Below are positions 7,263 to 44,513 of a stretch of 64,000 nucleotides of DNA, piece by piece. A model generated the notes under the pieces. The model had not been told where the DNA came from, ran no database searches, and saw only the letters and a program-made list of their open reading frames with translations. The first letter of the stretch is position 1. The number at the start of each line of letters is the position of its first letter. This DNA is from an uncultured delta proteobacterium (GTDB lineage Bacteria > Desulfobacterota > Binatia > Binatales > Binataceae), in contig CAWHTV010000004.1 in the NCBI GenBank assembly GCA_963832395.1, positions 1,780 to 65,779 of the forward strand, given 5' to 3'. The position numbers and the translations under genes are program-made.

Positions 7263-7853
7263 ATGCTTAGGAAATATATAAGCGCAGACCAAAAGGTCTT
7301 CGGGCTGAAATTCCAGGAACGGCTGTTTCGCAAGCGCACGCAAATTCCTTCGGCGAGCCGCACCAGGATTTTGCGAAGCATGTTGTTGCAGTTGCGAGAC
7401 CAGGAACTCCGCAGACTAAAGGAGCTCGTCCGCAATGAGGCGCGGCAGAAGGGATCCGTACCCGGCGACGAGTCGGATCATGCCCGCTTGCACGAGGATA
7501 TGGAGTTAAATGTCAGCCTGATTGACCTCACCGAACGCCGTCTGTCCGCGATTCTGGCTGCGCTCGAGCGGCTCGAAGAGGGCCGCTACGGAATATGTGG
7601 ACAGTGTGGCGACGAGATCCTATTCGAGCGGCTGCGGGCTATGCCGGAGGCCGTTTACTGTGTCGACTGCCAGGCGGATTCGGAGGCTGCCGACGGTGGC
7701 AGAGGCTCCGCCGGATGGGCTATGGAGAACACCTTCATGATCTCCGGTATTGCCAACTCCGGCGCTCCGCTTGAACGCTACAGCAATCCCGTACAGACCG
7801 ACGACCTGGGATTAAGGGCTCGCCCCCATCGGCGCAGGCGCGAAACGCACTAG
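7263..7853 (+). CDS. TraR/DksA family C4 zinc-finger protein
   Basis: 'GDESDHA', 'ALERLEEGRYGICGQCGDEI..ERLRAMPEAVYCVDCQ'; start uncertain. Confidence 0.8.
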   Translation: MLRKYISADQKVFGLKFQERLFRKRTQIPSASRTRILRSMLLQLRDQELRRLKELVRNEARQKGSVPGDESDHARLHEDMELNVSLIDLTERRLSAILAALERLEEGRYGICGQCGDEILFERLRAMPEAVYCVDCQADSEAADGGRGSAGWAMENTFMISGIANSGAPLERYSNPVQTDDLGLRARPHRRRRETH

Positions 7854-7966
7854 GTAGACACCCGGACGCGACCGTATCACACTCCCGGCCGGCTGTGCGC
7901 TGCGGCAGCCGGCGGGAGGAACGGCAGCCGGCGGAGGAACGACCCAGGCGATCAACAGGAGTAGCC

Positions 7967-8410
7967 GTGCCAAGATTCCGTAATATCCTGTGTCCGATAG
8001 ATTTCGAGAAGAATTCGATCGCCGCGCTCGAGATCGCGTGCGAACTTGCCGAGGAGCGGGGCGCGACCATCCACCTTCTTCACGTGGCAAGGGTACCATC
8101 GCAGGACATGGACGTACCGCTGCCGTTCGACGCAGACCCCAGATGGGAGCGAGCGGCAAGAGCCAGGCTCGAGCAGGTCGCCCGCGAACAGTTGCAAGGG
8201 CGGGTACGCTACAAGGTTCACGTAATCAGCGGCACGCCGGATGATGACGTGGTGCGCATGGCCCATGAGTTAAACGCCGAACTGGTCGTGATGGCGACGC
8301 ATGGGCGCAAGGGGCTGAGCCATTTCGTGCTCGGCAGCGTGGCGGAGCGCGTGATGCGCGAGGTCGATTGCCCGGTTCTTACTGTGCGGACGAAAGCCAA
8401 GTCCGCCTAA
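7967..8410 (+). CDS. Universal stress protein (UspA family)
   Basis: AGGAG RBS then GTG; 'ILCPIDF', 'LVVMATHGRKGLSHFVLGSVAERVMR..CPVL'. Confidence 0.92.
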   Translation: MPRFRNILCPIDFEKNSIAALEIACELAEERGATIHLLHVARVPSQDMDVPLPFDADPRWERAARARLEQVAREQLQGRVRYKVHVISGTPDDDVVRMAHELNAELVVMATHGRKGLSHFVLGSVAERVMREVDCPVLTVRTKAKSA

Positions 8411-35162: not shown

Positions 35163-36910
35163 ATGAGGCCGCTCAGCAAAGTCAGCCTGTCACGAGTCCG
35201 CCGCCTGCTGCCGTTCATCTCGGGATTTCGCTACAAGCTCGCCATCATTTTCGTTTTATCGTTTTCCAACACGATTTTGGGCCTGCTCGGGCCCATTTTT
35301 ACCAAGATTCTTATCGATGACGTCCTTCAGGCGCGCAATCTGCGCCTGCTCTGGATCCTGAGCGGCATAATGATCGCCGTCACCCTAGTGAGCTATGTGC
35401 TCGGCGCATTCAACCGCTACTACTACACCAGCGTCACCGCGCGCGTGCTCTTCAATCTGCGCCAGCATCTGTTCGAGCATCTGCAGGCGCTGCCGATGCG
35501 TTTTCACGTCCGGGCCAAGGTCGGCGACCTGCTCTCGCGGCTCAACACCGACATCGCTGAAGTGCAATCGATGCTGACCGACGCCGGCTTCAACTTCATC
35601 GCAAACATATTCACGCTGTTCGCCGCGACCGGATTTCTCCTGTGGCTGAACTGGAAGCTGTTTCTCCTCAGTCTGGCCCTGGTGCCGCTGCAACTGTACG
35701 GGGTGGCGAAGTTCCGGCCGTTGATCGTCAGCCAGACTCGCGCCGTGCGCGAGCTCAACGCGGCGATTTCGTCCTTCCTGGTGGAGTCGCTGTCGGCGAT
35801 AAAGTTCGTGAAGCTTTTCGTTGCCGAAAAAGTCCAGCACGCCCGGCTTTCCGCCCTGGGCGTCGCCTTCGTCAAATCCGTCACGCGGCTCGAGATGCTC
35901 TCGTACCTCGGCAGCAGCGCATCGGCCGCCAGCACCTTTCTCGGCTCCGCACTGGTGACGCTCTACGGCGGATACATGGTGATCGAAGGGCGAGATGACG
36001 ATTGGCAGCCTGGTCGCATTCTCGGCCTATCAGATGCGCGCGTTCAGTCCGTTGCAGGCGCTGATCGATCTCTATCTGCGCCTGCAGCGCGCGGGCGTAT
36101 CGGTGGACCGCATCTTCGAGTTCCTGGACCTGCCGACCGAGAGCGACAGCGCGCCGGGAACCGTCCGGCTGCCCGAGGTTCGCGGAGAGATCGAGTTTCG
36201 TCACGTTTCATTCAGCCATGATCCGGCCGTGCCGATCCTCGACGATCTGAGCTTCAAAATTCCCGCCGGCGGAAGACTCACAATTGTCGGTCCAAGCGGC
36301 GCCGGCAAAACCTCGATCGTCGACCTCATGACCCGGCTGATCGAACCTCGCGCCGGATCGATCCTGCTCGACGGTCACGATCTGCGCGCGCTCGACCTGG
36401 TTTGGCTCCGGAGCCAACTGGTGGTCACGGGGCATCAGGCCTTCGTGTTTCACGCGCCGATGATCGAAAATCTCCGCTACGCCTGCCCCGGACGCCTCGC
36501 TGGAGCAGGTGATCGCCGCGGCGCGCGCGGTCGGTCTGCACGATTTCATAAGCTCGCTGCCCGATGGCTACGACAACCCGGTCGGCGAGCACGGCGCGAC
36601 GCTCTCGGACGGCCAGCGGCAGCGCATCTCGATCGCGCGCGCGCTGCTCAAGGATCCTAAAATCCTGGTTCTCGATGAGGCGCTCTCCGCCCTGGACGTA
36701 GTCAGCGAAGCTGAAATCCGGTCCGCGGTGGAACGGGCGCTGCCCGGCCGCACGGTGATAATGATTACGCATCGGCTGTCCTCGATCCGGCAGGACGACC
36801 AGGTGATGGTGCTCGACCAGGGCCGCGTGCTGTGGAGCGGCCGCTACGGCGACCATCCGGACGGCCTGTCACAGAAGATCATTCAACCGCCGCAGGAACG
36901 CGTCGCTTAG
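35163..36910 (+). CDS. qhpF: Type IV ABC exporter (permease + ATPase), probable QhpF; frameshifts near 35990 and 36490
   Basis: '[10 protein letters not shown]', Walker A 'GPSGAGKTS', '[16 protein letters not shown]...[11 protein letters not shown]'; adjacent to qhpE. Confidence 0.8.
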
Positions 36911-36967
36911 AGTTCGCGAGCGTAACTGACTGCGTCGCGTTCGCATGGTTCGCGGGCGGATGCTTCA

Positions 36968-37855
36968 TCAGGGTTTCTTCAACGGCAGCGGGACTCCAGC
37001 GCTTTTGATAAGGCGCTCGCGGGCGTCCGCGAATCCCAGCTCCGGGCGATCCTGAATCAGCAGCGCCAGCAGCGCGCTCAGATGCGCCGAGGCGAAGCTG
37101 TGCCCGCGATAGTTGCGCGACTGGTCCAGGCCGGGCAGCGGGCGCGGCGAAGGATGAGCCCTGAAATGAATCGTGTCCTCCGAAATATATCGATACTCAC
37201 TCCACGAGCAGTCGTCGCTGGCGGCCACGCCGAAAACTCCATCGAGCGCCGCGGGAAGCATGTCCGCCCGCTCCGGTGGAGACGACGCCGCGATCAAGGT
37301 CCCGGCGCGCTTTGCCCGTGGCCGCTATCCTGGCCATCCGCGCGCGATGCTCGGGATTGGCCGTCCCCAGGCTCAGATTGACCACGTGCATTTTCTGCTC
37401 TATCGCCCAACGGAGAGCCGCTTCGAGAATTTCAATCGAGGTCACGAGGCGGTCGGTGAAAATCTTCACCGCAAACACCGTCGCCTCGGGCGCTTTGAAT
37501 TTCAGGATTCCGGCGAGCGCGGTGCCGTGTCCGAGGGAGTCTCGATAGTCGGAGGTCTGCAGCACCTCGCCCTTCGGACCGATGCTCGAACGCCACTCCG
37601 CCGGCGATCGGGCCGACGTGGGAATGGCCGGCGTTGATGCCGCTGTCGATAAGCGCGATGCGGACGCCCTCGCCGGTGCGAGTGCTTAAAGATTCGGGAT
37701 CGAACTCCGTCGAGGCGGGAGGCGAGCGGCGACTCGCGCGCGTCGCGGCGCATCCTTCGGCGCGCGCAGGTTCGCCTGCTCTCGGCCAGTACTTCAGCCT
37801 CGGTACTTGCTCGGCCGTGACCGCCGCCGGAACCTCGGCCCTCTGCCTTACTCAC
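36968..37855 (-). CDS. qhpE: Subtilisin-like S8 serine peptidase, probable leader peptidase QhpE (frameshifted; start uncertain, possibly 37965)
   Basis: 'GEGVRIALIDSGIN', 'DSLGHGTALAG', 'VVNLSLG', 'GHSFASAH'; follows qhpB. Confidence 0.78.
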
Positions 37856-37964
37856 CGGTCGCGTATTTTCGCGGCCTTTGTTGCAGAGACCTGCCGAGAC
37901 ATCTCTGCCGCGACGCGACCGCTTTCGGAATCCGTCTTAGACTCCCAGCGTACGGATCCTGACA

Positions 37965-39108
37965 TCACGGATCAACGCTTGTGGATGCCGGTGCTGACAG
38001 ATCCTTGTCGGTGCTGACGAATCTCATCCCTATCCCAGCCATCGAATGACCCATCTCGACGTCATCGATGTGCTTGAGAGTGTCGGCGTCGTACACATAC
38101 AGCGCGTGCCACTGGCCGCCGCAGTACACTTTCTTGCCGTCAGGCGAAGCAGCGGCACCGCCTGGCTGTTCGGCAGCACGGACCTGGCTTCTCTCTTCCT
38201 GCGTCACGTAATCGATCTTCCACAGGTCATTCCACACAAAGTATGCCTTATGAATATCGGGCGGGGCGGCGATGCCCTCGACCGTGTACCAGTCCTCGAC
38301 AAAGGGTTCGGTCTCGATGACGTCGAGATGTGGGATGCTCCTGCTTGAGGTCGAGAAGGCCAAGCGAAAGAGTATCCGTGTCGGTTATCGAGTCTTCAAC
38401 GATTATCGCGAACGTGATCAGGTAATTCTGTTCCTGATAGTTCGCCAGCAGCGGCAGGCCGTAGGTCGCACGAATGCCGGTGATATTCCGATGGGCCAGC
38501 GGGATCGTGCCCAGCACGTGGCCGTCGTTCGAATCGAGCACCATGATGTCCTGGCCGACGCAGAATGTGTACATCTTCGTGCCATCCGGCGAGAACGCAA
38601 ACGACAAGGTCTGTGCGGGCGCCGGGAACGATTTCACCTGCGTGTTGGTGGCGGTGTCGTATAACGACGAAACCGCTGCTCTTCGTGCTCGATAGCGACC
38701 GGGGCTCAGCTTCAAGCGGCAGCTCGCTGATATAAAGCCGATCGCCCTTCGGATTAAGGTTGGTCGCCGAGACCCGCACGGTCTCAGTATCGCTCGACAG
38801 CTTGTACGTCGCGACCTGCTTGCCCTGTTCCAGGTCGACGACGGCCACTGCCTGATCCAGATTGGTCGTCACATAGGCGAAGCGCGGAGTCGCCGGGTTG
38901 GTGGAGATCTGCGAGAATCGGCCCTGCCCCTCCAGCGGGATAGTCTTGACCACTTTGTCAGTGGTGGTGTCGACGATCTGGACGAGGTTGGGCAAGGTAC
39001 CGACGACCATGTACCACTTGGCCGACGCGTTCCTGCCCACATCGTCAGGGCGAGCCCAAAAATCCACGAACAGCACAGACGCAGATACCAACCGTCCCTC
39101 TTACTCAT
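37965..39108 (-). CDS. qhpB: Quinohemoprotein amine dehydrogenase beta subunit (frameshifted)
   Basis: Signal peptide plus beta-propeller repeats ('PNLVQIVDTTTDKVVKTI', 'FSPDGTKMY', 'SPDGKKVYCGG'); directly downstream of qhpC. Confidence 0.82.
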
Positions 39109-39162
39109 AGCAATCCCCTCGTTGGGCGGCTCCTCGGCCTCACGGTCTCGAACTCTTGAGAT

Positions 39163-39227
39163 TCGGCCCTCCGAGCGGAGGAGAATGCCCGAGCGCACAG
39201 CTCCTGCCTTGACGCTCGGAGGCCCGA
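39163..39227. other. Intergenic stem-loop between qhpC and qhpB
   Basis: tcggccctccgagcg (39163-39177) pairs with cgctcggaggcccga (39213-39227), 14 of 15 bp. Confidence 0.55.
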
Positions 39228-39267
39228 CGTCTATCAGAAGACTAGAAACCTGCGAACGGACGAACCG

Positions 39268-39584
39268 CTACTTAACTTTCGGGAACTCGACGTTCAGGCT
39301 TCTCCAGTCTTCCATGTTCACGCCGGAGCATCCCTTCGCCCATTCCGGATAGTTCTGCAAGCTGTCCGGCACCTGGGCCGGCCACCAACAGACGCCCGAA
39401 CAACCCGCCAGGTCAGCTTCGGTCGGACTGCACATCGCGTGCGCGCCGCCCCATGGGTCGGCTTCCCAGCCGGGATTGAAAATCGTGGTACAGCCCATCG
39501 GCTGAACCATTCCGACTACATCCCCCCCGTGCGCACAGCTTCGACCGCATGTGCCTTTCGATTCGCCGCCTTCAAGTGCTTCAT
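39268..39584 (-). CDS. qhpC: QHNDH gamma subunit / CTQ precursor peptide, 1-nt frameshift in a G7 run at 39522-39528
   Basis: GGAGGAG RBS; leader 'MKHLKAANRKA...DVVG'; core 'MVQPMGCTTIFNPGWEAD...CSPTEADLAGCSGVCWWPAQVPD' with C7/E16, C27/D33, C37/W43, C41/D49 in canonical register. Confidence 0.93.
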
Positions 39585-39636
39585 GTTCTCCTCCTGCCAC
39601 GAGCGCGAGCCGCACCATGCGGCTTCGCGCCCGCTG

Positions 39637-41121
39637 TCAATCTGCTAACTCAGTTCCTTGGGCACATCCCCCCGGCTTCGTACGATGTATTTCTCGACGA
39701 AACCCAGGGTTCTTCTGCTCGAGCTCAGTAAATACTCCGATACCGTATTCCGTCCATTCGCGCAGAAATACGCAATAATGGAGGTTGGGCAACGCGGCCT
39801 CGCCGAATTCCTGGAGCGCCTCGTGATAACAGCCGCCGCCGCAGATTCCGCGGATCCAGCAGGTCTGGCAGACCGGCTTGTTGCCCACCTGAACGCTGTT
39901 GACGAATTCGGTCAGGCGCCCGTACTCGATCCCTTGCTTCACGTTGCCGTACTTGTGTTCCTCGACTGCCCGGAAACCGATGACACAGATACACGTCGCC
40001 ATTGCCGTCGACATCCAGCAATCCGAGCCCCGCGCCGCACGGAAACATCTTGTTGGTTCCCAGATGCAGGTCCGTCAGCATCGTGCTCAGGTTGGAGAAC
40101 CCCGTGTACTGGTTGTTCAGCGCGCGGTCGACGTAGATGCCCGCCAAGTTCCTTGAACCCGGCGATAACCTCTCTCAGATCGGCCGCGTCCAGGCCGTAG
40201 TCGAGGCCCGGCTTCGCGGTCACCGGGGAGAAGCCGACTTCAAAGAATCCGAGGCCGCGCAGATGTTCGTAGATCCGAACGATCTCGACGGCACCCTTGG
40301 TAACCGTGACGCGCGCGACGATCGGGCGCGCCGTGTAGCGCTCGCAGCAGGCGTTCCACGCGGCTCATGATCTGGTCGTATGAGCCCTTCTTTTCGCCGC
40401 TATTGCTGAGAAAGAAGCGTCGGCGGTCGTGGATGTCCTTGGGGCCGTCGATACTGATAGTCACGCCGAAAAGATGCTGCTTGCAGAAAATCGATTATCT
40501 CGTCGACCAGCAGCGTCCCGTTGGTGGTGATCGAAAAATCGACCTTCTTGCCCACCGCCGCGCCTTTGTTCTCGGCATACTCGACGACCTGCTTCATCAA
40601 CTTGAAGTTGAGCAGCGCCTCGCCGCCGAAGAAGACGATATTGACCTCGCGATTTTTACCCGCCTTCTCGAAACAGGAAATCGACGCTGGTTCGGGCCGT
40701 CTCCCATTCCATCCGAACCGGCGCGGGTCCATATTTCGCCCCGTCCGGCTCGTAGCAGTAGGTGCAGTGGAGATTGCACTTGTTGGTGACGTTGAGGACC
40801 AGCGAGCTCATCGGAAAGTGCTCGGTGTCCACGAACGGAAGCGCCACCGCGCCGCTGTTCTGATGGCCGACCAGCACCTCGACGTTCATGAATTCCCTGA
40901 TGACGTGGGCGACATCTTCACCGACGAAGTCGCTCGAAAGCTGATTGACAGACCTCCTCCAGCGTGAAGCGCCGCTTGTTCTCGCAATACTGGAGCACCG
41001 CCTCCGAGAGCGGGTCCATCGTGAACAGCGACATGGTCTTCGCCGCCACCAGCACGGTCATCCCGCTGTGGTTGACCACATGCGCGTTCTCGGGCCGGAA
41101 TTCCAGTTCGTCAGGTCTCAC
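39637..41121 (-). CDS. qhpD: Radical SAM/SPASM thioether-forming maturase (frameshifted)
   Basis: 'CNLHCTYC', 'FFGGEALLN', 'ITTNGTLL', 'ISIDGP', 'CGAG...DVYLCHRF', SPASM 'CQTCWIRGICGGGCYHEA'; lies between qhpA and qhpC. Confidence 0.9.
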
Positions 41122-41149
41122 AGATTTTAAGCCTCTGAGCGATCACTTA

Positions 41150-42781
41150 TCAGTTTATAGGCATGAATACGAACTTCGGCGGCATCAGCAACATAAAGGC
41201 CCGCGCGCCCATCGGAGGCTTTGACGGGTCGGGCTTGTACCACGCCTCGACCCAAACGTCGCCGACGTTGGATTCGCTATGGATGCGCTCCGGGTTCGGC
41301 CCATCGGTGGCCGCGATAAAGGTCCCGTATGGGTCGACCTTCCCGACGTACAGCACGTCGTCGTCGCTGATCCTGCTGACGCGCTCCGCCACGTCCCAGG
41401 TGAGCGGCCCCACCCGGCCGATATTCACCGGCTTGCCGTCGGGCCCATGGGTGAACCCGAAAGCCTCAAATTGCTGGTTAACCTTGGGTCCGCGAGTGCC
41501 TCCGGGGCGTCCATAGCCCCGTTCGGGAGTGATGCTGATGTAGTCGACGGTCTTATACAGGTAGAAGGGCTGCTCGCCCTCGACGCCGGCGATTTTGATG
41601 CTTCGCGGTCCTACCTTGGCGTCCGCGTCGGCCACGATCTCTGCAACCACGGTGTTATCACCGGACTGGCTGACCGATTGGACCTTAAGCCCGTCGCCAA
41701 CGCCGATCGCGTCCGCGCTGATGTTCGCCGGCAGGTTCATCCCGAATAGCCGCACTTTGACCGTCTTGCCGGCCTGGATCGACTTGGGAATGGCCGTCAG
41801 AAGCTGAGCTCCACCGCCGACCTTGTACAGGGTCTCGTCCATCCCCAGGTCGCCAACCGGCGTCAGCAGGCGCCGCCCATGCATCTCGGTGCCGTTTTCG
41901 TTTCCGAAGAAGATCTCCACTTCCTGTTTGTCTGCTACCTGCGCCCTGCCCGCGCCACTGGAATTTCGCGTAGAGGACCGCCTCCGTGGTGCCCGAGACC
42001 GAGGAGCCGTCCGCGAAGTCATGGGTGAACTTGCCGCTGTACTGATCGTCACCCGACGAGGTCACAGTCAGGAGCCCCGTGTAGTCTCCGCCCTTGGCTG
42101 GGTCGTGGCCGACCACCAGCCATTTTCCGGAGTAGTCCGGCTTGGCGGACCAGCCTGCCATTCCTTCCACGCCGCGGTCTGGAACGGGAACCGTTTGGCG
42201 AAGTACGGTATCGCCTCTCCGGTGGCGACCTGACGCCAAGGATCGATCAGGTTTCCGGCCGACGAGGTGTCCGAGGCGACGAACGGCACGAAGTACTCGT
42301 GCAGGTCAGGCAGCCGCTTCCACATCTCCGGCGTGCGGCGCTGCAGGCCGATACGCGCGAAGGAGTGACACTGGACGCAGGCGCCGACCACATTGGGCGG
42401 CAAGCCCGCCCTGTCGTCGCTCCTGCAAGCGTGCTGTTGCGCTCTTCCAACGCGTATTCGAACGGGGTGACCTCCGAAGGCGCCAATCCATAGTTATCGC
42501 TGAGGTACTTGAGGATCTTGTGAGCCTCGTCCTCTTTGAGCTGCAGGCCATGGTTGCGAATCATCCGGCTGAGCGTCATCCGCCAGCCCTCCGGCGTCAT
42601 GCGCACGGATTCGATCGAGTCGAGCTTACCGTCCTTCGGAATGTGACACGCGGTGCAGACCAGCAGCGTATTGTTCGCCGCGCTTCTGCTGGGCGCCGGC
42701 CCTGCCACTGAAAAAACAGAGAAATGAGAAGACGAGAATAAATGTGACAGCAGTTGAGTCCGGTGCTCGACGCGCGCCCAT
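41150..42781 (-). CDS. qhpA: QHNDH alpha subunit (di-heme c), frameshifted
   Basis: GGAGG RBS; signal peptide; 'CTACH', 'TPEGWRMTLSRM', 'KYLSDNYGLAPSE', 'CVQCHSFARIGLQRRT', 'QFEA', 'DGPNPER...NVGD'. Confidence 0.9.
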
Positions 42782-42993
42782 TCGATGCAGCCTCCCTTGC
42801 TCGTTCGGAAACTCATCCCTAGCGCGAACCAAAAAAAAAGAAAAGCGAATTCGCTAGGATTGTCTCAACTCCGCCCGCGAGCCCATCGACCCGTGCAACC
42901 TGCCGGCCGATAAGTCGGCGCTCAGTGACTAACTGTCCTGACTAACTTCCCTGTCTCTTCATCGCCCGGCGGGCGGAAATTCTTGGAAGTCGA

Positions 42994-43028: not shown

Positions 43029-44513
43029 TTAGAACATCTCGAAGTACTCGCGATGCTCCCAATCGGTCACGTGCGAAAGGAAGCGGGAGATCTCGAATTC
43101 TTTCAGCGCAACTATGTAATCGATGAAATCGTTACCCATCTTCTCGCGGAACAGCGCGCTGTTCTTGAGCGCGGCTCACCGCGTCCATCAGCGACCGCGG
43201 CAGTACCGCTCGATCGGTGTCGGCGTAGGGATCGCTGGTCGGTCGGCCCGGGATCGAGCGCCTTCTCGATTCCGTCCATGCCGGCGATCAGGTTCGCCGC
43301 CAGGTACAGGTAAGGATTGGCGGACGGCTCACCAAGCCGGTTTTCGAGGTGCGTGCCGGGATCGGTCGGCCTGCCAATCACGCGGATCATCGCACCGCGA
43401 TTCTCGGTCGCCCAGTTGGCGCGATGCGGCGCCAGCGAATTGGGGCGCAGCCGCTTGTAGCCGTTGATGGTCGGATTGCTGAAGACGCAGCCGGCGGCCG
43501 CATGATGCAGCAGTCCGCCGACGAAGTTGCGGCCGGCCGCCGACAGCAGTCTGCGAGGCGTCCGGCGCGACAAACGCGTTTTCGCCGGTCGCCAGCGAAT
43601 ACAGCGACTGATGCAAATGCCAGCCGCTCGCATAGACGTTTTGCACCGCCGGCCAGCACATGAATGTCGCATGGCATCCGTGGCGCCGGCAGATCTGCTT
43701 CACCGCGCTCCTGAACAGCAGCATGTCGTCGGCGGGTGCGAGCCCCGTTTCGGGCTCGAACGTCACTTCACACTGGCTGGGGCCCCATTCGGTCTCCAGG
43801 CTGCGGATCGGAAGTCCCAGCGCTTCGAGATTTTCGCGCAACGTCTCGAGGATCGGCTGCATCTCGTCGATCTTCTGCTCGGCCAGGTGCTGGAAACCAT
43901 GCGCCAGCAGACTTACCTGCGGCGGATCGGGCGGCTGCGCGGATTGCTCGGGACGAAGACGGGCGTCTTCGAGCTTCATCACGTAAAACTCGACCTCGAG
44001 GCCCGCCAGCGACCCGAAGCCCTTGCGGCGCAACTCCTCGAGCGCTCGCCGATAGATGTAACGCGGCGCGATAGTTACCGGGCCGCCGTCGGGAAGATAC
44101 AGGTCGGACAATATCCAGGCCGTGGCGGGAACCCATGGCAGCACGCGGAAGGTCTCCGGATCGGGAACCATCAGAAGGTCGCCGGAACCGCCGGCAACGC
44201 CCAGCGGCAGGCCGCCTTCCCTGGTGAAAACCGGGAAGGCGACATGGTTGGAGGTGTCGAAGGCGAACAGCGTGCTGACGACGGCGTGGCCGCGCTCGAG
44301 CGCGGCGAGAAAGTTTCGCGCGGTCAGCGTTTTGCCGCGCGCGATTCCGTGTTGGTCGGCGAACACGACCCGCACCGAGCTTATCCGGTCGCGCTCGATC
44401 GTGTCGCGGACCGACCGCGCGCTATCTTTTTGCGCCTCTGTCCAAAGTCCGTGGCGCTCGACAAATCCCGGGCGCGAGAGGCCCGACGGCTTGAGCTCAT
44501 CCGATCTAGCCAA
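43029..44513 (-). CDS. Glutamine-synthetase-like gamma-glutamyl-arylamine ligase (AtdA1/TdnQ type), frameshifted
   Basis: 'FVERHGLWTEAQ', 'ADQHGIARGK', 'MVPDPETFRVLPW', 'GLEVEFY', 'EWGPSQCE', 'SGWHLHQSL', 'ENRLGEPSANPYLY', 'WEHREYFEMF*'; matches AtdA1/TdnQ as recalled. Confidence 0.82.

Follow-up and report, generated by a model that had tools for sequence, protein, structure and literature searches.

The window, by which we mean the whole 64,000-nucleotide stretch of DNA analysed here, carries a qhp operon in the order qhpA-D-C-B-E together with an adjoining ABC exporter (Table 1). The genes were recognised by matches of NCBIfam equivalog models to protein fragments and by synteny with the intact locus of a relative (L018), and qhpD sits directly upstream of qhpC. 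The closest loci belong to metagenome-assembled genomes (MAGs) labelled Candidatus Binataceae, Binatia or "uncultured delta proteobacterium", and their QhpC cores are 98-100% identical to that of the window. One close relative, a short-read MAG (L016), has qhpE directly after qhpC (7305-8198), with qhpB and the exporter absent from the 7 kb downstream.

The QhpC core was assigned to the Pfam family PF08992 (QH-AmDH_gamma) by profile search, scoring 97.6 bits against a cut-off of 25, and is the single match to this family across the whole genome. It also matches the solved chains 1JJU_C (3.8e-26) and 1JMX_G (1.4e-24), with query residues 5-80 corresponding to chain residues 5-79 and residues 5-60 aligning to both chains free of gaps. 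As the alignment runs residue for residue, the pairs C7/E16, C27/D33, C37/W43 and C41/D49 stand in canonical register, and the first-pass annotation of this DNA was therefore right in its numbering from Met1 and in its placement of the four canonical cysteines and their partners. It had further stated that the known gamma subunits of Paracoccus and Pseudomonas have four cysteines, which holds for both solved chains; each carries Ala in the column of C61, and the solved structures retrieved include no five-Cys enzyme. The translated window gene adds the fifth cysteine that had been read there, C61, which lies in a second GCSGV motif and is followed by E67-D68-W69. Relative to both solved chains, one residue is inserted between C61 and the D-W pair.

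Table 1. Features of the qhp locus, in window coordinates.
Feature	Position	Strand	Basis or remark
ABC exporter, qhpF-like, fragmented	35163..36910	+	
qhpE, subtilisin-like leader protease, fragmented	36968..37855	-	NF049966
qhpB, beta-propeller subunit, fragmented	37965..39108	-	TIGR03907
QhpB Cys codon, KKVYCGGQW, Cys327 in L018 numbering	38121..38123	-	Only candidate disulfide partner; clade-specific
qhpC core, 80 codons and TAG	39268..39510	-	Translation, PF08992, alignment with solved chains
E67, D68 and W69 codons	39304..39312	-	Candidate acceptors E67 (+6) and D68 (+7)
Second GCSGV, G60-V64	39319..39333	-	
Cys61 codon TGC, fifth cysteine	39328..39330	-	Invariant across six aligned loci
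Four canonical Cys codons, whole span	39388..39492	-	C7 39490-39492; C27 39430-39432; C37 39400-39402; C41 39388-39390
First GCSGV, G36-V40	39391..39405	-	Around the CTQ cysteine C37
qhpC leader peptide frame (MKHLKAANRKAHAVEAVRTGGM*)	39516..39584	-	Out of frame with the core; leaders of relatives intact
G7 run	39522..39528	-	One base short of five relatives and of the relatives' short-read contigs
qhpD, radical SAM/SPASM thioether maturase, split into several frames	39637..41121	-	TIGR03906
qhpA, di-haem alpha subunit, fragmented	41150..42816	-	TIGR03908

Compared with the L018 locus, positions 36881-42871 of the window are 84.3% identical over 6,010 columns and show 51 indel events, of which 29 are insertions and 8 deletions of a single base on the window side. 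The window's indels are mostly single-base insertions outside homopolymers. Seven of these insertions fall in qhpD and none in the qhpC core, which has zero indels relative to its relatives. The qhpC leader and core, which share a frame in five relatives and in the relatives' contigs, are read in different frames here because one base is missing from the G run between them.

All of the large operon genes being split, the number of indels and the out-of-frame leader could potentially indicate a decaying cluster of pseudogenes, in which C61 would be without function in this genome whatever its role elsewhere. Several observations argue against decay. The protein fragments between the breaks are 80-96% identical to intact relatives, with no in-frame stops noted, and the qhpC core is free of indels. 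A neighbour outside the operon (43112-44513) is likewise split. Logan contigs of at least 90% likeness from four coded metagenome runs, which represent relatives and not the same strain (in a search of sequencing runs, the best share of the window's words was 0.16 and none reached half), show one base more than the window, at 39521 or 39525, in each of the three runs that reach the G run; the additional bases that the window has at 39703 and 39964 are missing from all four runs. The genome, with 13 contigs and 76.9% completeness, fits an indel-rich long-read assembly; the number of long ORFs per Mb gave no discrimination as a gauge of assembly quality, because high G+C yields many spurious long ORFs. 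The frameshifts of the qhp locus are thus very likely to be assembly errors and not gene death, the window probably coming from an unpolished long-read assembly, and a pseudogene cluster is correspondingly improbable.

Conservation of C61 was followed through several samples of homologues. Among 44 near relatives, 39 of the 40 sequences that cover column 61 have Cys there, four do not cover the column, and one (P0032) has Lys. P0032 joins 49 N-terminal residues identical to the window type to a C-terminal part resembling four-Cys sequences ('AGKPSA-QNDW'), and is the product of either recombination or chimeric assembly. Of 77 aligned representatives of 50%-identity clusters, 49 cover the column, 38 with Cys and 11 with another residue. 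The genome loci inspected were the best 78 of 587 confirmed matches by similarity to the query, a biased sample, and these 78 hold 86 QhpC copies, 44 of them with Cys61: all 35 Binatia-type copies, 8 of the Acidobacteriota type and that of locus L044. The 42 copies without Cys61 in the same 78 loci are mostly proteobacterial; copies from five loci labelled Binatia or uncultured delta proteobacterium (L043, L046, L047, L050 and L054) are also without it. Same-genus copies have Cys61 in nine of nine cases. The window's own phylum was sampled evenly with 401 genomes, of which 15 gave 17 QhpC matches; Cys61 is present in all 17 (16 in the alignment; G000 and G031 included), among them a third distinct sequence type, 'DTGWETNPRP'. 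The Cys61 codon is TGC in 32 and TGT in 9 of the 41 five-Cys copies that could be read, out of 44; the other three were mis-indexed.

The first-pass annotation had named conservation of C61 in close homologues as one test of its proposal, and the residue proved to be strictly conserved, in close and distant homologues alike. Its view of the gene as a special variant with an extra cysteine has to be given up: across the homologues compared, a fifth cysteine is usual outside a single four-Cys clade and is not peculiar to the window gene. The latter is almost certainly a normal qhpC of canonical type from an uncultured member of the Binatia, in which C61 is an old residue, strongly conserved in most QhpC lineages.

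Two kinds of variant QhpC were met in the same searches. L095 (G317:C15:44400-44612), P0068, P0096 and P0114 have Thr in place of the CTQ cysteine C37 ('GTTDMYCWWPGQAPD') and keep C7, C27, C41 and C61. Eight Binatia loci (L022, L024, L025, L027, L028, L029, L031 and L042) have two qhpC copies within 14 kb, one after qhpD and the other after qhpA; both copies are five-Cys and their loops are distinct, AKGCSGMNQEDW and ASACSGVNAEDW.

The history of the cysteine was traced on unrooted trees of QhpD (59 rows, a quick IQ-TREE run) and QhpB (64 rows). In both, a branch with an SH-aLRT support of 99% sets the four-Cys Paracoccus/Pseudomonas type apart from all other sequences, and the Cys state needs one change only. 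The five-Cys sequences form three deep groups in the QhpB tree, namely Acidobacteriota, Binatia and L044, the last being sister to the four-Cys clade. Wherever the root is placed outside the four-Cys clade, Cys61 is ancestral and was lost once. A single change leaves no independent events over which co-variation could be tested statistically, and the correlations of C61 with E67, with the insertion and with the constraint on the loop that are described below may therefore all be due to shared ancestry.

Some records depart from this division by taxonomic label. A number of window-related genomes, or genomes labelled Binatia or uncultured delta proteobacterium (L043, L046, L047, L050 and L002-L004) harbour a four-Cys qhp operon of proteobacterial type; these operons are nested in the four-Cys clade of the QhpD tree, which suggests inter-phylum transfer. 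Conversely, Binatia-type operons were found under the labels Verrucomicrobiia, Thermodesulfobacteriota, Enterobacteriaceae and Methylomirabilota (L021, L025, L034 and L040), and these off-label records are likely to be mislabelled bins or transfers.

The sequence around C61 offers acidic residues at suitable distances. In the window, C61-x5-E67 and C61-x6-D68 both have spacings within the known QhpD range, and the x5 spacing is that of C27-D33, with Cys on the N-terminal side as in the three known links. Among the 38 Cys-bearing cluster representatives, the distance from Cys61 to Asp68 is 6 in 34 and 7 in three, two of the latter with Glu at +6 and one (P0097) with Gln; the remaining representative is truncated. 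E67 is present in all 35 insertion-bearing copies in the best 78 of 587 loci, a count to be read with the fact that E67 itself defined the insertion group in the loop comparison; no insertion-bearing copy without E67 was met elsewhere among the loci. Position 67 of the four-Cys group is R, N, K, D, E, G, H, Q or T. An acid at +6 from Cys61 is thus kept in both architectures, as Asp in most lineages and as Glu in the Binatia insertion clade, and the C27-D33-like spacing noticed in the first-pass annotation holds across lineages as Cys-x5-acid. As to the co-variation of C61 with E67/D68 that the annotation had put forward for checking, D68 and W69 are invariant in 78 of 78 alignment rows and in all three Cys-state groups, and so do not co-vary with Cys61, and fixation of E67 is confined to the Binatia clade that has the insertion.

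The loop itself differs between the groups. Identity over core residues 6-57 is 0.86, 0.89 and 0.87 across the three groups, whereas, averaged over pairs, identity in loop 58-67 is 0.73 in the Binatia five-Cys group, 0.66 in the Acidobacteriota five-Cys group and 0.28 in the four-Cys group. With core identity almost equal and loop identity unequal, the loop is held where the cysteine exists and relaxed where it has been lost. In the four-Cys group the loop is hydrophilic and gapped, and position 61 is Ala in 27 of 41 distinct sequences and K, V, S, R, I, D or T in the others.

Less can be drawn from the repeated motif. GCSGV occurs twice in QhpC (residues 36-40 and 60-64), and a search of the window with a degenerate DNA pattern for the motif hits these two sites and no other, against 0.05 expected, in a test devised post hoc. 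A true DNA duplication was considered and rejected, since four of the five third-codon positions differ between the copies and the first copy is not conserved outside a genus-level clade, reading GCAN, SCAN or GCSN in other Binatia. The repeat, to which the first-pass annotation had attached meaning as a duplication, is a genus-level coincidence and uninformative on function.

In the Paracoccus system, as set out in the portions of the literature consulted, QhpD introduces one Cys-Glu and two Cys-Asp thioethers into leader-bearing QhpC in the cytoplasm, QhpG hydroxylates W43, to which C37 adds to form CTQ, and QhpE cuts off the 28-residue leader, the peptide being carried to the periplasm by the ABC exporter (PMC7876137, PMC13692751, PMC11951088). 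C37 is left unlinked by QhpD in the enzyme studied and stays free until CTQ forms, and an iodoacetamide and MALDI assay has been published for the same system (PMC7876137, in the part consulted). The sections consulted of reviews and papers to 2026 describe three thioethers only (PMC7876137, PMC13692751, PMC11951088); no mention of a fifth cysteine or a fourth thioether was found in those parts of the QhpC/QhpD literature, and an alignment that shows the cysteine may have been published.

The best reading of C61, and a candidate only, is that it forms a fourth thioether made by QhpD, for which we would give a probability of roughly 0.4. It is favoured because of the conservation of C61, the acid spaced at +6, the constraint on the loop, the lack of a disulfide partner and the presence of qhpD upstream. 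QhpD would bind the leader of QhpC in the cytoplasm, make the C7-E16, C27-D33 and C41-D49 links, and also join the sulfur of C61 to a methylene carbon of the acid six positions downstream, namely E67 in the window and, where the one-residue insertion is lacking, Asp. The resulting link would close a small ring and pin the C-terminal loop 58-67. QhpG and C37 would then build CTQ on W43, after which QhpE would remove the leader, the exporter would move the peptide out, and QhpC would assemble with QhpA and QhpB. Points on the other side are that QhpD does not crosslink a cysteine automatically, as C37 remaining unlinked in the studied enzyme indicates, that the conservation of D68-W69 needs no crosslink, because the pair is invariant in four-Cys sequences too, and that P0097, an insertion-bearing representative, has Gln at +6. 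An AlphaFold2 model of the QhpC core built on the 78-row alignment reached a mean pLDDT of 50.6 and a pTM of 0.19, at which the geometry of the loop is unreadable. The extra thioether suggested in the first-pass annotation therefore keeps its support from conservation and from the Cys-x5-acid spacing, and loses that from co-variation with D68-W69, from the GCSGV signal and from the notion of a gene-specific variant.

Alternatively, C61 could be a conserved free thiol, packed within the gamma subunit or at a subunit interface, with a steric or hydrogen-bonding role, and replaced mostly by Ala in the clade that lost it. The prevalence of Ala at position 61 in the four-Cys group fits a small buried thiol, and the invariance of D68-W69 even without the cysteine and the absence of a conserved partner Cys in QhpA or QhpB also speak for a free one; C37, which is not touched by QhpD, offers an example of a thiol left free until CTQ formation (PMC7876137, in the part consulted). 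Tolerance of K, R and D at position 61, in a loop that is hydrophilic and variable in the four-Cys clade, suggests an exposed site instead. A lone exposed thiol is unusual in an exported protein, which argues against this explanation. Moreover, C61 is invariant across lineages whose QhpB subunits are only ~25% identical, which exceeds the usual demands of packing. We consider a free thiol somewhat less probable than the thioether.

C61 could also be modified or liganded in some other way, for example bonded to W57 or W69, converted to a persulfide, or in contact with a metal or a haem. Of the two tryptophans, which lie close in sequence, W69 is invariant and W57 nearly so, and the family already uses a Cys-Trp bond at C37-W43 (PMC7876137, in the part consulted). 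Both tryptophans are, however, equally conserved in four-Cys sequences, no extra maturation gene was seen to accompany the five-Cys state in the loci read, and no precedent was found in the portions consulted of the QhpC and quinohemoprotein amine dehydrogenase literature, so that chemistry of this kind is improbable. A few QhpC sequences (P0097, P0099 and L041/P0036) have six cysteines, with a further one near position 19 ('ETDCA'; 'GWEPTCGG' in L041) besides C61, and this residue might be bonded to C61 as a disulfide or enter a further link.

The least probable explanation, and a very doubtful one, is that in the Binatia clade C61 forms a disulfide with the single Cys of mature QhpB (KKVYCGGQW; Table 1), tying gamma to beta in the periplasm. 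The QhpB Cys, which the window also has, occurs in 15 of the 24 five-Cys loci and in none of the 40 four-Cys loci, and in 23 of 26 Binatia-type rows, being the sole cysteine of the mature region in 17; the five closest relatives have a second Cys in mature QhpB. All 15 carriers nevertheless belong to one clade, and C61 is retained in L040, L044 and the six Acidobacteriota loci, none of which has the QhpB Cys; the latter must therefore have arisen later than C61. Both solved beta subunits have Leu in this column, where V, L, I or T is found in other sequences, and the position lies inside strand 324-328 of a confident AlphaFold2 model (pLDDT 87.8), in a pattern typical of a buried propeller core; on this model it looks like a buried propeller position that became Cys by chance in one clade. 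A complex prediction of L018 QhpB (residues 30-378) with the QhpC core scored 0.02, where the mark is 0.32, and gave no contacts, an outcome that speaks neither for nor against a disulfide. QhpA conserves only its four haem-binding cysteines (24 of 24 five-Cys and 35 of 35 four-Cys rows) and offers no partner for C61. A QhpA or QhpB cysteine as the general partner of C61 was accordingly rejected, as QhpA has its haem cysteines only and QhpB has none in L040, L044 and the Acidobacteriota at the position concerned. Other QhpB cysteines occur as clade-specific pairs, 'AMCDV...PGCADQ' in 14 of 40 four-Cys loci and 'NKRCEFW...VPCRSRF' in 4 of 6 Acidobacteriota loci, and are probably intrachain disulfides.

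Returning to the fourth thioether, a more extended version can be put forward from the same alignments and trees, with a probability slightly lower still: QhpD may install the fourth link generally, the three-staple subunit of Paracoccus and Pseudomonas may be derived and reduced, and the Binatia insertion may have shifted the acceptor from Asp to a fixed Glu. If so, the gamma subunit would be held by four staples in most natural quinohemoprotein amine dehydrogenases, QhpD would handle one ring more and accept either Asp or Glu, and the model enzymes would represent an exceptional lineage. QhpC serves as a model for radical-SAM thioether formation within a whole protein. Should C61 instead be a free thiol, it would still be relevant to the heterologous expression and annotation of many non-proteobacterial enzymes. 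New here are the Binatia insertion with its fixed Glu at +6, the figures for the constraint on the loop, the single-change trees, and the rejection of the QhpB Cys as a general partner.

The QhpC of the window resembles those of Paracoccus denitrificans (1JJU/1PBY chain C) and Pseudomonas putida (1JMX/1JMZ chain G) in Pfam family, length and numbering, and has in common with them the pairs C7/E16, C27/D33, C37/W43 and C41/D49, the CWWPAQVPD core, D68-W69, the leader peptide and the operon partners. It differs from the solved chains in the fifth Cys (Ala there), in the one-residue insertion after it, in the invariant Glu at +6, and in a loop 58-67 that is conserved in the window type and variable in the Paracoccus/Pseudomonas four-Cys type. 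Five-Cys QhpC of the Acidobacteriota and of the 'DTGWETNPRP' type have Cys in the same column as the window, followed by the invariant D-W, but have no insertion, Asp at +6 and Lys or Arg at position 67, and their QhpB is without the Binatia Cys.

The thioethers made by QhpD are ranthionine links, which are also made by PapB/CteB-type maturases in ranthipeptides, and in the account consulted their Cys is N-terminal to the Asp or Glu, with x5, x7 or x8 between them (PMC13692751). The candidate site at C61 has a spacing within the ranthionine range, and a qhpD with radical SAM and SPASM domains directly upstream; its acceptor would be Glu in the Binatia clade and Asp elsewhere. A more distant parallel is the TTQ beta subunit of methylamine dehydrogenase, which like QhpC is small, exported, equipped with a quinone cofactor and held by many covalent staples, although, in the part of the source consulted, these are six disulfides made after export, where QhpC has thioethers made in the cytoplasm (PMC7876137).
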